Made by a program: the position numbers and the translations under genes. DNA of 64,000 nt, taken from positions 10,807 to 74,806 of IMG/VR virus record IMGVR_UViG_2706795396_000001; one strand, 5' to 3'. The notes beneath the pieces were generated by a model, which saw only the letters and a program-made list of their open reading frames with translations, ran no database searches and was not told where the DNA came from. Position 1 is the stretch's first letter, and each line of letters starts with the position of its first letter. Positions 5,130 through 56,509 of the stretch are shown piece after piece. This DNA is from a virus. Taxonomy: Duplodnaviria > Caudoviricetes.

Positions 5130-8100
5130 ATGGCAGACAGAGTAGGAAGCGGAGCAGAAATTAAATTCCGTGTTGGTGTTGACACTTCCACCGCTGAAAA
5201 GAACTTAAGAGAACTCAAAAAGCAATTTCGGAATGTAAATGACGAAATGAAGGCTACAGATACTCAACTAGCTGCTGCTGGTGATACCTTTGGCCTTTTA
5301 GAGAACGATTTAGCTCACCTTGAAGCGGCAATGAAGATTCAGAAGGCCGCTGTCGAAAAAGCTAAAGAAGAGTGGGAGAAGATGACCAAGGTTGTTACTG
5401 ATGCTAACGGGGCAACCCGAAGAGTCAGTGACACAACTAACCACAATGCCAACATTGTTGCGAGAGCAAGAAGTGAATATGACAAGCAGTTAGTCACTCT
5501 GAAAAAAGTTTCTGCTCAATATGATGTAATTCAAGCTAAGGTTAAAGTTTACAACTCTAACATTTCAGAATTAGTCGAAAAACACAAGGCAGAACAAAGT
5601 GTCTTAGAGCAAGAAGTTAAGTTAGCAAAAGCTCAAGGGAATGAGACAGAAGCTCAAGCCAAACAGCTTAAACTTCTTAACAAGCAGTATTCAGACGCCG
5701 TTTCTGAATCTAAGCGATACGAAAAAACTCTAAAAGAACTTAAAGATAGTGGTCTAGAGAACACTGTTCAATATAAGCAACAAGAGTCTGCCTTAAAAAA
5801 GACTCAAGTTCAGATGGCTGCTACTAAAAAGAGTATTTCTGATATTAATGCCAGTCTTGAACACTCTAAATTAGGTATTGAAGCTTTCAATACTAGTATG
5901 GAGGAGTCTGAAAAGGCTTTTGAACATGCGTTAAAAGTAAGTTCCGCCTATGATAATTCGGTCAAACAGCTAGACAAGCAGATTGAACATAGCAAAGAAG
6001 TTCAAAAAACTTTAGCAGCTGAAATTAAGCGGGTTGAAACAGCAAAACAAAACCTTGTCAAGAACGCCGCTAAAGAAAAAAGAGCTACTATTGAGAATTC
6101 TGATGCGTATCGATCTTTATCAAAGCACCTCGCAGATTTAGAGGAGCGTCAAGCCTCAAGTATCTTACAAGAGAGGGCTTTAGTTAAGGCTAGAAAAGAA
6201 GCTCTTGTTCAAAAGACTCTGGAGACTACTGGACTTAAAGATTTTAACAAATCATTTAAGGAAACAGAAGAGCTTGTTAAGAAGCAAATTGAACGACAAA
6301 GACAATTAAAGGGCGAAACGAGTGCAAATCTAAAAGCTATTGAACTCTATAAAGCTCAGCAAGAGGCGTTAAAAAAAGAAATTGGCAGACTTACAAGTGC
6401 TAGAGGTAATTTAGCTAAACAAGGTCAGAAAGAGTCTGAATCTTACAAACTTGTAAATAAGGCCATTATAGAAAATCAAGCTAGATATACAAACCTCGCT
6501 AAAGAAATTGAAAAGGCTAACACAGCAATAGAGCTGAACAATACTCATGTCAAAGAGAATGAGGCTATTGCTAAAAAGCACGATCAAATATATAGAGAGC
6601 TTGATGCACGTTTTAAAGACTTTAACGGTACTGTCAAGGCTAACGTTGAACAACAAAAGCATCTTGCAACTCAATTAAACGACAGCAAGGCTAAAATTAA
6701 GTCATATAAAGAAGCTTTAGTTGCTTTAAATAAAAATTATAAAGACAACGAAAAAGAAATTTCTGAATATGAATTAAAGCTTGAACAAGAAAAGACTAAA
6801 TACTCTTCTTTGACCAAGAAGATGGCAGAGTATAGAAGTGGCTTAGTCCTTTTAAGAACCACTCAACAGAACGTAACTGCTATTAACGAATCTGCCTATA
6901 ATGCTTTAAAAAGTCAAGGTAGACAGTATGAAGCGAACTATGTTCGTATTAAAGCGCTCAAGAAAGAGCATGAAGAGCTAACCGCTCAATTAAGGATTGA
7001 GAAATCTTTACTAGAGACCACTGCTAGAAAGTCGGGCGTAAGTTCTGTTGCTTATGCAAATCAAGCTTCAAAAGTTAACGGTATTCAAAGCAGAATAAGT
7101 TCAAATGCTAATGAAGCTAATGAGTTAATCAAGAACACAGCTTTAATTAACTCAACCAACAAGCGTGCAGATGCTATTGTAAGATTAGCTAAGAAGTACG
7201 AAAATCTAGGGGTTGTTTTACGTGGTGTTGGTGTTGCAGGGGTAGCTGGCCTTGCTGGATTAATCTATTTAGGCGTGCAAGGCTCTAAGATTGCCACTGA
7301 TTTAAACAACACTTTCACAAGAACTAAGAACTTAATTGTTACTTCAAACACAGAAACCACTGCTGAAATAACCAAAAACATGGCAAAGATGAAGCGACAA
7401 GTAAAAGACTTGGCTTCAACTTATGGTGAAAGTCAAAAAGAATTAGCTGAAGGACAACAAGAACTTATCAAGCGTGGTTATTCGTCAGGACAAGCTGTAA
7501 AAGCTTTTGGGCAGTATGTTAAGGCAGCTGCCGCAACTGGTGAAGACTTCAATGAAGTAACTCAAGTAGGTGCTGCAACGCTTGAAGCGTTCGACATGCG
7601 ACAAACCCACACTTACTCAAACTCAAAGAAAGTGTTGAACGCTATCGCCTATGCTGCCGACATGACAGCCTCAGACTTTAAGAGTTTGGGGATTGGTATG
7701 GAGTATGTTGCTTCGTATGCTCACCAAGCTGGTATTTCACTAGAAGAAACCGCTTCAGCATTAGGTATCCTGTCTAACAACGGTCTGGAAGCTCAAAAGG
7801 CTGGTACTGGTTTACGTAAGATTATTTCTTCTCTTACGTCACCAACTAAAGCCGCCGAGGAAGCTTTGAAAAGTGTCGGTTTAAAGACTTCAGACTTTGT
7901 TAATAAGTCTGGTAAGTTAAAGAGTATTTCTCAAATATTCGGGCTTTTAGCTAAACACACCGAAAAAATATCAAAAGCTAAGAAAGTTGACCTGCTACAC
8001 AAAATCTTCGGTCAGACTGGACAGAACGCCGCCGGTATATTCTTAACTAACGCTCAATCTGCTTTGAAAGGAACGGCAGAAAGCGTTGATGAGTTAACCT

Positions 8101-54653: not shown

Positions 54654-55580
54654 TTAGAATGGTAAATCGTCATTATCCACAGTTACGTTGCCAGAACTTT
54701 GATTACCAGCGTTATCAAACGGGCTCTTCACAGCCCCACCAAATCCTGAAACAGCCGGAGCAACTTCTACAGTGTTTTCGGTTCTTGAGATTTCTTGTCG
54801 AATTTCGTTGATAGCTTCTTGAGCCTGTTCCTCATCGACTTGAATCTTGTTTGATTGAGCACCAGTAATCTGCATGTTGTTTACATAAGAGTTAGGCTTA
54901 ATTTCTTCAACAAAACCAAAACCGTCAGCCGCTTCATCTTGCTTGTCTTCAATTACAGCGTAGTTATTGATCTTGTAACCGATAGTCCATGTTCCCCGCA
55001 AATCCTTTTCATACATGATTGCAGGAGCAACGAAGTCAACCAGCTTGTTGGCCTTACCGTTGTAACCAATGTAGAACCCCTGGACGTCATAAGTATTAGT
55101 AGGTTCACCGTGTTCCATGTGTTCCTTATAGTCACTCACGTAAACATCTAAAGCGCCTACTGCCTTAGGCTTAACAACGTTAGGATCAACTCTAGAGAAG
55201 CTTCTAGCTGACAAACGGTTACTTTCAATAGTTTGACCATTATTATCAGTATATACGTTCCAAGAGATGTCGCCATTTACTCTTGCGTAAGTAGCGTTCT
55301 CAGCGTCTTCGTCCTTAGCAACGTATTCTCTGATGACAGTTTCGAATCCTTCGTAGAACGGGTTTGGCTTACCTGACTTAAATAATTGGCTTTGGTATAC
55401 GTTAACTCTGATATTGTTCAGTTGAACAGAACCGTCTTGTTGAGCAATTGGCACTTCCATAGTAATATAACCACGAATTACTTGCCCACCATCTCTTGCA
55501 GTTGCGTAGTTGATATTCTTGCTCTTTACGTAACCTACAATCTGAAATGAATTAGTGTTAAACTGCTTAATGTTTGTCAT
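54654..55580 (-). CDS. ssb: Single-stranded DNA-binding protein-like
   Basis: OB-like N-terminus (+.G.+..K…G.+..N.Y), acidic tail ending DDDLPF; located in the recombination cluster. Confidence 0.7.
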   Translation of the reverse strand: MTNIKQFNTNSFQIVGYVKSKNINYATARDGGQVIRGYITMEVPIAQQDGSVQLNNIRVNVYQSQLFKSGKPNPFYEGFETVIREYVAKDEDAENATYARVNGDISWNVYTDNNGQTIESNRLSARSFSRVDPNVVKPKAVGALDVYVSDYKEHMEHGEPTNTYDVQGFYIGYNGKANKLVDFVAPAIMYEKDLRGTWTIGYKINNYAVIEDKQDEAADGFGFVEEIKPNSYVNNMQITGAQSNKIQVDEEQAQEAINEIRQEISRTENTVEVAPAVSGFGGAVKSPFDNAGNQSSGNVTVDNDDLPF

Positions 55581-55647
55581 AGTGTTTTACCTCACTAAAT
55601 TATACTATTACATATTACTAATTTATTCTAGGCTTTTGTCAGCCTAT

Positions 55648-55693
55648 AGCGTGCAGAGGAATCGAACCCCTCGATTAAGAACCATCTCACGCT
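55648..55693 (-). ncRNA. tRNA-like minihelix E1 (acceptor + T arm, no anticodon arm)
   Basis: AGCGTG-AGATGGTTCTTAATCG-AGGGG-TTCGATT-CCTCT-G-CACGCT. Confidence 0.7.
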
Positions 55694-55786
55694 GCCTAAA
55701 GTTAAGAAAAGAAATGAGGTAAAACCCAATGCAAATGAGAACATTAGGTTTTAGATAGCTAAAAAATGAGTAAAAAAGCTATCTAT

Positions 55787-55830
55787 CCTATGTCTAGAGA
55801 ATCGAACTCTAGATGAGCACCAGTCATAGG
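55787..55830 (-). ncRNA. tRNA-like minihelix E2
   Basis: CCTATG-ACTGGTGCTCA-TCTAGAG-TTCGATT-CTCTAGA-CATAGG. Confidence 0.72.
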
Positions 55831-55872
55831 CATTGGTCCGTAGACAAATGTAGTAAATCTATAACCACTATT

Positions 55873-55901
55873 ATTATACGATACTATTTTTGATTTGTCA
55901 A
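55873..55901 (-). promoter_or_regulatory. Consensus sigma-A promoter TTGACA-17-TATAAT driving E2-E1
   Basis: Perfect consensus; no ORF immediately downstream. Confidence 0.85.
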
Positions 55902-55957
55902 CGGTCCAATTTAAATCTAGGAGGACTTTTTTGTTCACTATCGTTAACGTGAACTAA

Positions 55958-56001
55958 GACGTGTGGCTGAATCGAACAACCATTTGATGACCACCCACGC
56001 C
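55958..56001 (-). ncRNA. tRNA-like minihelix E3
   Basis: GGCGTG-GGTGGTCATCAAA-TGGTTG-TTCGATT-CAGCCA-CACGTC (two G-U pairs). Confidence 0.7.
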
Positions 56002-56086
56002 CACTAAAGGAGGTTTTCTACGCTATGACAAACATCGGCTTGAAAATAGAAAAGGAGGTACTTAAGCTAGAATTTTAATCTAGCTA

Positions 56087-56158
56087 TCGAGCAAAAGAGA
56101 AATCGAACTCTTATCTTACACTTATAAGGTGTCTGCTCTACCTTTGAGCTATTGCTCG
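56087..56158 (-). tRNA. tRNA-Ile(UAU), with an 8-nt T loop and no encoded CCA
   Basis: CGAGCAA/TTGCTCG acceptor, GCTC/GAGC D stem, ACAC-CTTATAA-GTGT anticodon arm (anticodon TAT), AAGAG-TTCGATTT-CTCTT T arm. Confidence 0.8.
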
Positions 56159-56272: not shown

Positions 56273-56509
56273 TTAGAAGGAAAATCCTAGCATCATCAAA
56301 AGCAAGATTATAGCACAAGCCAACAAAGCGGTCAACGTTTCTAGCAAGTTTGTACTATATATCTCTAAGTGAGCTCTTTTGTATTGTTCTATTAAAACCT
56401 CTAACGTACCAAACACCCAAAAGGTAAATATTAGACTGATGACCATCATTAATTGACTAAGATTATCATGATAAAATCGCAAATCTAACCTCACAGGCAA
56501 CCAAAACAA
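56273..56509 (-). CDS. Small membrane protein (start uncertain)
   Basis: Two hydrophobic segments; weak start context. Confidence 0.35.
   Translation of the reverse strand: MFWLPVRLDLRFYHDNLSQLMMVISLIFTFWVFGTLEVLIEQYKRAHLEIYSTNLLETLTALLACAIILLLMMLGFSF

Follow-up and report, generated by a model that had tools for sequence, protein, structure and literature searches.

Exact complements of a phage SSB-type gene start in its own leader RNA: a possible case of start sequestration relieved by tRNA-type processing

Introduction

How is a gene translated when the leader of its own transcript carries exact complements of both its ribosome-binding site and its start codon? The question is raised by a 64-kb stretch of DNA (the window), part of a 74.8-kb IMG/VR virus record from an uncultured phage. 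In this window, a gene of the YorF family, labelled ssb (for single-stranded DNA-binding protein, SSB) in a first-pass annotation, is preceded by about 650 non-coding bases, and the genes around this leader region lie on the minus strand. The leader holds a tRNA-Ile(UAU) and three short tRNA-like units devoid of an anticodon arm. In the first-pass annotation, two segments of this array had been recognised as inverted repeats of the gene start, and either a fold-back repression in cis, relieved by tRNA-like processing, or a repression in trans by released small RNAs had been proposed. The best reading of the analysis reported here, which we adopt tentatively, is a sequestration of the SSB start in cis, relieved by tRNA-type processing of the leader.

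Complementarity between the leader and the gene start

The two inverted repeats were checked by direct reading of the sequence and both were found to be exact. On the plus strand, positions 56023-56035 are the reverse complement of 55570-55582, which span the 2 nt before the ATG and the first 11 coding nt of the gene (-2 to +11), and positions 55715-55725 are the reverse complement of 55584-55594, which hold the Shine-Dalgarno (SD) sequence and its spacer. The complete start signal of the gene is made of a GAGG SD, a 9-nt A-rich spacer and the ATG. The shorter repeat had also been described as lying 3 nt from a plus-strand ATG. This ATG is present in the window (55729-55731) and, because it lies three bases on, the proximal match extends in the transcript to 15 of 17 positions, from the SD through the AUG; this ATG is not conserved, being lost in three related leaders (L003, L013 and L010). 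The two segments, hereafter the distal anti-start segment and the proximal anti-SD segment, are carried by the same transcript as the gene; the two promoters upstream of the gene, P1 and P2, are both on the minus strand (Table 1).

The probability of finding such matches by chance, which the first-pass annotation had left to be estimated, was determined by comparing the start region (-20 to +13) with 630 nt of leader in 5000 dinucleotide shuffles. A complement of at least 11 nt was obtained in 29 shuffles (P about 0.006) and one of at least 13 nt in 4 (P about 0.0008), whereas a 13-mer and an 11-mer never occurred jointly (0/5000). In a separate shuffling test, the proximal anti-SD segment gave P = 0.001. 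Among the 56 SD-bearing gene starts of the window, that of the SSB gene ranked first with scores of 13 and 11, the runner-up reaching 9. Furthermore, no other copy of either motif was found anywhere in the 64 kb, and neither is therefore a start-site consensus shared between genes. When duplex energies were calculated between the distal block and the 56 start regions, the SSB start was its best partner (-27.3 kcal/mol versus -21.6 kcal/mol for the next one). The paired complementarity is real and exceeds chance.

Predicted folding of the transcript

The full P1 transcript (658 nt) was folded. The 13-bp anti-start helix was predicted with a probability of about 1.0 and the 8-bp core of the anti-SD helix with a probability of about 0.95, so that the initiation region is paired almost without interruption from -17 to +11; the probabilities of being unpaired were 0.02 for the SD and 0.0 for the AUG. 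In an RNA cut at the 3' end of unit 3, these values rose to 0.71 and 0.64, respectively. The proposal that the array transcript could pair over both the ribosome-binding site and the start codon is supported by the two predicted helices, but the last four A-U pairs of the anti-SD helix are weak and fall to 0.3-0.01 in competition with hairpin 3. The shorter P2 transcript keeps the anti-SD segment and is also predicted to be closed. When each of the 56 gene starts was folded with its own 618 nt of upstream sequence, the YorF start was the least accessible (0.13, median 0.42). From these accessibilities, the pairing is predicted to lower SSB translation.

A scan for sigma-70-like promoters did not reveal any match between unit 3 and the gene, and the gene is therefore expressed through the leader. 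A TATAAT-like hexamer at -24 was considered as a promoter downstream of unit 3 and rejected, since it gave no scan match, is devoid of a -35 element and would initiate inside the SD.

The YorF-family protein

The protein encoded downstream of the leader belongs to Pfam family PF27337 (YorF) and to phrog_2367. The family libraries searched give no function for YorF, and PHROGs lists the family as unknown. At the sequence level, the protein did not match any SSB family in Pfam, and a profile search of the PDB gave no significant match to solved structures (best E 1.2). A model was computed with AlphaFold (AF2) from an alignment of 93 sequences of diverse homologues and reached a pLDDT (predicted local distance difference test) of 89, with a C-terminal tail of low pLDDT. 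The best solved matches of this model in Foldseek were the SSBs of Thermus and Deinococcus, which contain two oligonucleotide/oligosaccharide-binding (OB) folds (E 3e-8 to 3e-6), followed by many single-OB SSBs. In addition, the alignment terminates in DDLPF, a tip of the SSB type whose terminal F is near-invariant across the 93 homologues. The fold match and the DDLPF tip therefore support the ssb label at the level of the fold, in agreement with the first-pass annotation.

The binding of single-stranded DNA is a candidate role for the protein, to which the context also points: the downstream genes code for an antirepressor and for a Sak4-like AAA_24 annealing protein, and some YorF homologues have been named SSB by their depositors. 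If the model is correct, this widespread phage family would be assigned the function of an SSB with two OB folds, of the Deinococcus-Thermus type. As a separate observation, 24 distinct stretches of P0069, a 2465-residue protein of the representative library, match residues 14-33 of the YorF profile; P0069 is either a repeat protein built on the N-terminal strand motif of YorF or a low-complexity artefact.

Tandem tRNA-like units

The three mini units are 44-48 nt long and are composed of a 7-bp acceptor stem, a linker of 11-16 nt with an invariant UGG, a 5-bp T stem and a canonical, invariant T loop of 7 nt. The acceptor stem and the T arm form a 12-bp stack; the discriminator is followed by UAG and a hairpin, and no CCA is encoded. 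With respect to a canonical tRNA, the acceptor stem, the T stem and the T loop are present at their normal sizes, whereas the D and anticodon arms of the cloverleaf are absent, 11-16 nt replacing positions 8-48. ARAGORN and the Rfam model RF00005 detected only the tRNA-Ile in the leader region, and no Rfam family could be assigned to the units or to the spacers at E up to 10. In a set of 20 units from 11 loci, double compensatory changes were observed in 9 of the 10 modelled pairs, and the units are therefore real structured RNAs. Their shape and the lack of an encoded CCA suggest that they could be cleaved by RNase P and RNase Z.

A covariance model built from the units (R1) was run over the whole phage genome and detected exactly three copies, all in the YorF leader. 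The same model found no unit in distantly related cultured Lactobacillus phages, in which the YorF genes have short upstream gaps; for these two reasons, the Tybeckvirinae (Satyr, SA-C12 and P1) were rejected as a cultured model. In other collections, a strict unit pattern had no match in viral_contigs, and a loose pattern applied to metagenome and genome contigs returned mostly unspecific hits, only those of L042, L096 and L101 scoring as true units (46-48 bits with model R1). L042 (1633-1678) and L096 (2589-2634) each carry one unit, ahead of tRNA-Arg(UCU) and tRNA-Trp and behind consensus promoters; the L042 unit has no adjoining CCUCC. L101, a G+C-rich phage-like contig, carries two units between small genes (6243-6288 and 6684-6727), with CCUC/CCUCC motifs nearby. 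These contigs are unrelated to the phage studied here, and the units therefore belong to a broader family. Similar units beside CCUC blocks in unrelated phage contigs would imply a wider class of phage RNA module.

Conservation in related leaders

Twelve distinct leaders from metagenomic contigs, with YorF proteins 76-91% identical to that of the window, were compared. The relatives' leaders were obtained by exact-protein look-ups only: scans of viral_contigs and metagenome_contigs with protein patterns, using the protein or the alignment as query, found no relatives, and blastn of the leader region against the phage collection gave no match. The architecture is kept in the relatives, with P1, the tRNA-Ile (10 of the 11 relatives that have a leader), the hairpins, one to three units, hairpin 4 and an A+U-rich stretch.

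In 8 of the 12 leaders, the anti-start block occupies the same place, 3' of the tRNA hairpin and 5' of the first unit. Anchored on the AUG, its continuous pairing covers 14 positions in the window and 8-10 in the other leaders that have the block; in L002, L004 and L007 it runs 3 + 3 pairs further past single mismatches. Ten bases of the block are invariant, whereas four-fold degenerate sites average only 60% identity across the lineages, and this invariance at 40% neutral divergence indicates that the block is under constraint. As judged by shuffling, the complementarity of the block to its own 16-nt start window is significant in the window, L002, L004, L007 and L008. In the L002-type leaders, the predicted pairing of the block, through the adjacent CCUCC, takes in the SD as well as the AUG, and in seven full-length leaders the probability of an unpaired AUG is at most 0.05.

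The anti-SD segment, with 8-11 exact bases at the homologous position, is present in the window, L003, L002, L004, L007 and L010, and this complement is significant or near-significant in only about half of the leaders. The length of its U run equals that of the A run in its own spacer, 4 and 4 in the window and 6 and 6 in L002 and L004. In L012 and L014, where the SD reads AGAGAGG, a CCUUUCU block pairs with it through one G-U. More generally, in 10 of the 12 leaders the partner of the SD in the minimum-energy fold of the region from -185 to +25 is the pyrimidine block that immediately precedes the last unit. A loss of complementarity in homologous arrays, which the first-pass annotation had named as an argument against repression, was thus seen in a minority of the relatives and not in the majority.

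Locus L015, the thirteenth, is organized differently: at positions 1200-1520, a TnpB/OrfB gene of the IS605 family replaces the whole leader, and a second, truncated copy of the first 10 codons, followed by a stop, stands just upstream of the YorF gene. This duplicated start beside TnpB suggests that the 5' end of the YorF gene is a hot spot of rearrangement.

Proposed mechanism

In the mechanism that we propose, transcription from P1 (and P2) would proceed through the tRNA-Ile(UAU) and the three anticodon-less units into the SSB gene. As long as the transcript is unprocessed, the distal segment would pair with the start codon and the first codons and the proximal segment with the SD and its spacer, so that duplex RNA would cover the initiation region from about -17 to +11 and keep 30S subunits out. 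The 12-bp stack, the T loop and the GG linker of the units would be the features recognised by the host RNase P and RNase Z. Cuts by these enzymes at the tRNA-Ile and at the units would detach both anti-segments from the mRNA. Hairpin 4, about 66 nt ahead of the AUG, would then form the 5' end of the mRNA, and the initiation site would be open; the synthesis of SSB would thus be coupled to, and delayed by, the processing of its leader. Helix formation in vivo, cleavage of the units and activation of translation by this cleavage are the steps that we infer. The SSB type of the protein, the absence of a promoter of its own, the predicted helices, the covarying units and the constrained anti-start block all argue for this mechanism.

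Several results weigh against it. The anti-start complementarity is weak (11/16) in L003, L010 and L013, and L011, L012, L014 and L016 (4 of the 12 leaders) possess units but no anti-start complement, their genes beginning with different codons. The anti-SD segment of L013 carries an uncompensated U-to-C change. When own and swapped start regions were compared by duplex energy, no advantage of the own partner was detected (permutation p = 0.56), and an AUG-anchored swap matrix revealed no own preference either. What covariation there is thus comes down to run lengths and a single U-A / A-U difference that separates two clades: the position of the segments is kept and some run lengths match, but compensatory evolution between the segments and the start region, which the first-pass annotation had proposed to look for, was not demonstrated. 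Moreover, the duplex energy of the proximal block with the SSB start ranks only 4th among the 56 partners, and the accessibility of this start is a modest outlier (0.13 versus 0.17 for the next gene). Since CCUC/CCUCC motifs also stand beside the L101 units, the anti-SD signal may stem in part from the unit module and not from this particular gene. Finally, a cut in the backbone would not by itself separate a 13-bp duplex, and relief would need either co-transcriptional cutting or decay of the released piece. The two helices, stacked on each other, might also form a site for RNase III.

In a more elaborate form of the proposed mechanism, the minihelices would be release tags cleavable by RNase P and RNase Z, host tRNA maturation would license SSB translation as in a switch gated by processing, and the freed anti-SD pieces might act on other messages; we regard this form as possible but doubtful.

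Alternative explanations

The distal block could have been kept for a reason foreign to SSB control, either as the start of a mini open reading frame (ORF) on the opposite strand or as the relic of an inverted duplication of the 5' end of the gene. Read on the plus strand, the block shows a strong SD, a spacer of 8-11 nt and ATG-ACA, opening ORFs of 5-17 codons, and in L002, L007, L010 and L013 it forms a near-ideal start site with an 8-nt spacing. The same SD-spacer-ATGACA pattern is found at ordinary gene starts in 15 unrelated viral contigs. These 15 viral_contigs loci, retrieved with an anti-start + CCUCC pattern, were rejected, as they lack units and are ordinary gene starts of the other strand. 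The CCUCC of the block suits a consensus SD better than the GAGG of the gene; the block also matches the first 16 nt of the gene at 13-14 positions, as expected for an inverted copy, and the duplicated start of L015 is compatible with a rearrangement-prone gene 5' end.

Complementarity alone cannot separate a sense-RNA from an antisense-start reading of the block, but four points favour the former. Sense transcription is certain, whereas no plus-strand promoter was found upstream of the mini-ORFs, the sole plus-strand matches (9/12) being located at 55574-55603. The plus-strand SD has decayed in L003 and L008, in which the anti-start complement is retained. A separate second complement, which an antisense start or a relic would leave unexplained, covers the SD, and its plus-strand ATG is not conserved. 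Lastly, a change in hairpin 3 of L010 keeps a U-G pair on the sense RNA while destroying the plus-strand ATG. In addition, the peptides vary in length and sequence and share only M-T-D/N, and a neutral relic would not remain invariant at the divergence observed. This origin of the block is therefore considered as unlikely.

The inter-unit pieces, each with a 5' hairpin and a CCUCC/anti-start tail, could act once released as antisense small RNAs on the SSB mRNA or on SD sequences generally. In favour of this repression in trans, the tRNA-Ile and every mini unit have a hairpin within 1-4 nt downstream and a pyrimidine block upstream, 3 of the 14 minus-strand CCTCC pentamers of the window fall in the 620-nt leader, the distal block pairs best with the SSB start among the 56 starts, and CCUC/CCUCC also flank the units of the unrelated contig L101. 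However, the pieces would arise in a 1:1 ratio with their target and on the same molecule, so that the additional step would give nothing beyond pairing in cis, and the L042 unit has no neighbouring CCUCC. The trans reading of the first-pass annotation thus appears distinctly unlikely.

A control by promoter choice, without any role for processing, would have a precedent in the T4 genes e, soc, 49 and I-TevI, in which sequestration occurs only in the longer transcripts (PMC3014915). P1 transcripts would be untranslatable, while P2 transcripts, which lack the anti-start arm, would be translated; P2 (12/12) lies between the distal segment and the gene in the window and in L003, and P2-like promoters are found in L012, L014 and L016. 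Nevertheless, L002, L004, L007, L010 and L013 carry the anti-start block without P2, L012, L014 and L016 carry P2 without the block, and P2 transcripts retain the anti-SD segment and are predicted to be closed, making this explanation quite improbable. As for fortuitous matches without function in A+T-rich non-coding DNA, single 8-nt complements, such as those of several relatives, appear in about a quarter of the shuffles and the swap tests showed no partner specificity, but the joint rarity of the two matches, the first rank among 56 starts and the homologous position and invariance of the block in relatives leave this idea hardly credible.

Comparison with known systems

The sequestration of a ribosome-binding site in a longer transcript and the activation of an mRNA by endonucleolytic trimming of its leader are already established in phage T4, including for its SSB gene. 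In the case of T4 gene 32, RNase E cleaves every transcript 71 nt ahead of the AUG, the piece 5' of the cut is broken down and the trimmed mRNA is stable; the gp32 protein binds autogenously to a pseudoknot of its own leader, and A+U-rich repeats overlap the ribosome-binding site (PMC3014915). For T4 e, soc, 49 and I-TevI, the SD and/or the AUG are sequestered in the longer transcripts only (PMC3014915).

The gene 32 leader appears to be the closest analogue of the leader described here. Both precede a phage SSB gene, both are long and structured, and both have an A+U-rich repeat stretch before the ribosome-binding site; the predicted cut lies here about 66 nt before the AUG, compared with 71 nt in T4, and would leave a 5' hairpin followed by AAUAGUU-type repeats. 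In contrast, gene 32 relies on RNase E and on autoregulation through gp32 and the pseudoknot, with no tRNA-like units and no anti-SD or anti-AUG segments. The repeats in question lie between hairpin 4 and the SD (55595-55628, minus strand), where two to four AAUAGUU-like direct repeats are embedded in A+U-rich sequence, and L002-L010 have such a stretch at the same place. They resemble the UUAA(A) repeats of T4 gp32 self-repression, and an autoregulation of SSB is therefore possible.

As in T4 e, soc, 49 and I-TevI, initiation signals are here predicted to pair with an upstream segment that only the longer RNA contains, and the shorter form would be translatable. Unlike the present leader, these T4 genes use a local hairpin and obtain the short form from a promoter located within, whereas here the arms are 145 and 455 nt away and tRNA-type processing would generate the short form; only some relatives have an internal promoter. 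What would be new with respect to T4, with computation as support, are the long-range arms and the tRNA-shaped elements as proposed cutting signals.

In tRNA-mRNA co-transcripts such as the E. coli tRNA-tufB operon, in mitochondrial tRNA punctuation and in the MALAT1-mascRNA pair, tRNA-like folds are the cutting signals of RNase P and RNase Z. There, and as proposed here, tRNA or tRNA-like folds within a longer transcript set the ends of the neighbouring RNAs, but the units of the present leader are devoid of D and anticodon arms, and we know of no tRNA-punctuated system in which the cut removes the complement of a downstream ribosome-binding site. In RNA thermometers and riboswitch expression platforms (the fourU element of SPbeta blyA), a pyrimidine tract of the 5' untranslated region pairs with the SD and blocks initiation. 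These are short local hairpins opened by heat or by a ligand, in contrast to the two long-range helices predicted here, which include the start codon and in which no sensor domain was identified. The tRNA-like domain of transfer-messenger RNA (tmRNA) and the bacterial Y RNA YrlA combine, like the mini units, an acceptor stem, a T arm and a short D-loop-like GG linker without an anticodon arm; the mini units differ by the absence of a tag reading frame or a Ro-binding module, by their size of 44-48 nt and by their tandem arrangement within an mRNA leader.

No description of a leader combining long-range anti-start arms with tRNA-shaped release signals was found in the literature searched. If the proposed mechanism is true, the expression of a recombination/replication protein would be tied to the activities of RNase P and RNase Z, and the anticodon-less tRNA-like elements of phage tRNA regions would receive a function.

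Organization of the leader

In the order of the transcript, the 5' part of the leader comprises P1, a 5' hairpin, the tRNA-Ile(UAU), a hairpin and a spacer with two CCUCC and the distal anti-start segment. Mini unit 1, a hairpin, another CCUCC, P2, mini unit 2 and hairpin 2 form the middle part, and the 3' part is made of hairpin 3, which carries the anti-SD, mini unit 3, hairpin 4, about 35 A+U-rich bases and the SD. The coordinates are given in Table 1.

Table 1. Coordinates of the gene, its start region and the leader elements in the window.
Feature	Position	Strand	Remarks
YorF-family gene (ssb)	54654..55580	-	308 aa; two-OB-fold SSB-like; C-terminal DDLPF tip
Translation initiation region	55569..55598	-	GAGG SD, 9-nt A-rich spacer, AUG and first codons; no unpaired part predicted in the primary transcript
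Target arm of the 13-bp inverted repeat	55570..55582	-	start codon, -2 to +11
Target arm of the 11-bp inverted repeat	55584..55594	-	SD and spacer
Hairpin 4	55629..55646	-	starts 1-2 nt past the unit-3 discriminator; would be the 5'-terminal stem-loop of the processed mRNA
Mini unit 3	55647..55693	-	60.4 bits (model R1); acceptor stem of 7 bp, linker of 15 nt with GG, T arm; anticodon arm and CCA absent
Proximal anti-SD segment	55715..55731	-	11 exact, 15/17 up to the AUG; shares bases with hairpin 3 (3' arm and pyrimidine tail)
Hairpin 3	55720..55753	-	terminator-like scan match; last 4 nt of the anti-SD contested between its 5' arm and the start region
Mini unit 2	55786..55830	-	49.4 bits (model R1)
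Promoter P2	55873..55901	-	12/12 consensus; between the distal anti-start segment and the gene
Mini unit 1	55957..56001	-	46.6 bits (model R1)
Distal spacer block	56002..56064	-	two CCUCC motifs and the anti-start segment
Distal anti-start segment	56023..56035	-	exact complement of the start-codon region in the leader RNA
tRNA-Ile(UAU)	56087..56158	-	first leader element, then a hairpin at 56065-56085
Promoter P1	56205..56233	-	extended -10; conserved in relatives

Hairpin 3 was the sole terminator-like site reported in the scan. As a candidate terminator, it has 3 G-C pairs out of 13 and an interrupted pyrimidine tail, and in the L002-type leaders the U run is 9 nt away from the stem. Hairpin 2 (55755-55790, minus strand) is conserved; it has 9 bp and a loop of 16 nt in which U runs flank ACUCAU, a motif that reads GUUCAU in relatives. 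The loop has as its complement AUGAGU, with which the YorF gene begins in L011 and L015 but not in the window phage. A third promoter-like site (56307-56335, minus strand), 11/12 with TG, is located inside the 3' part of a 78-codon ORF (56273-56509), which may be no gene because it starts with TTG and has no family match. Finally, of the 14 minus-strand CCTCC pentamers of the window, the three located in the leader are confined to 140 nt (55920-56058), and two of them read ACCUCCUUU, resembling the 3' end of 16S rRNA.

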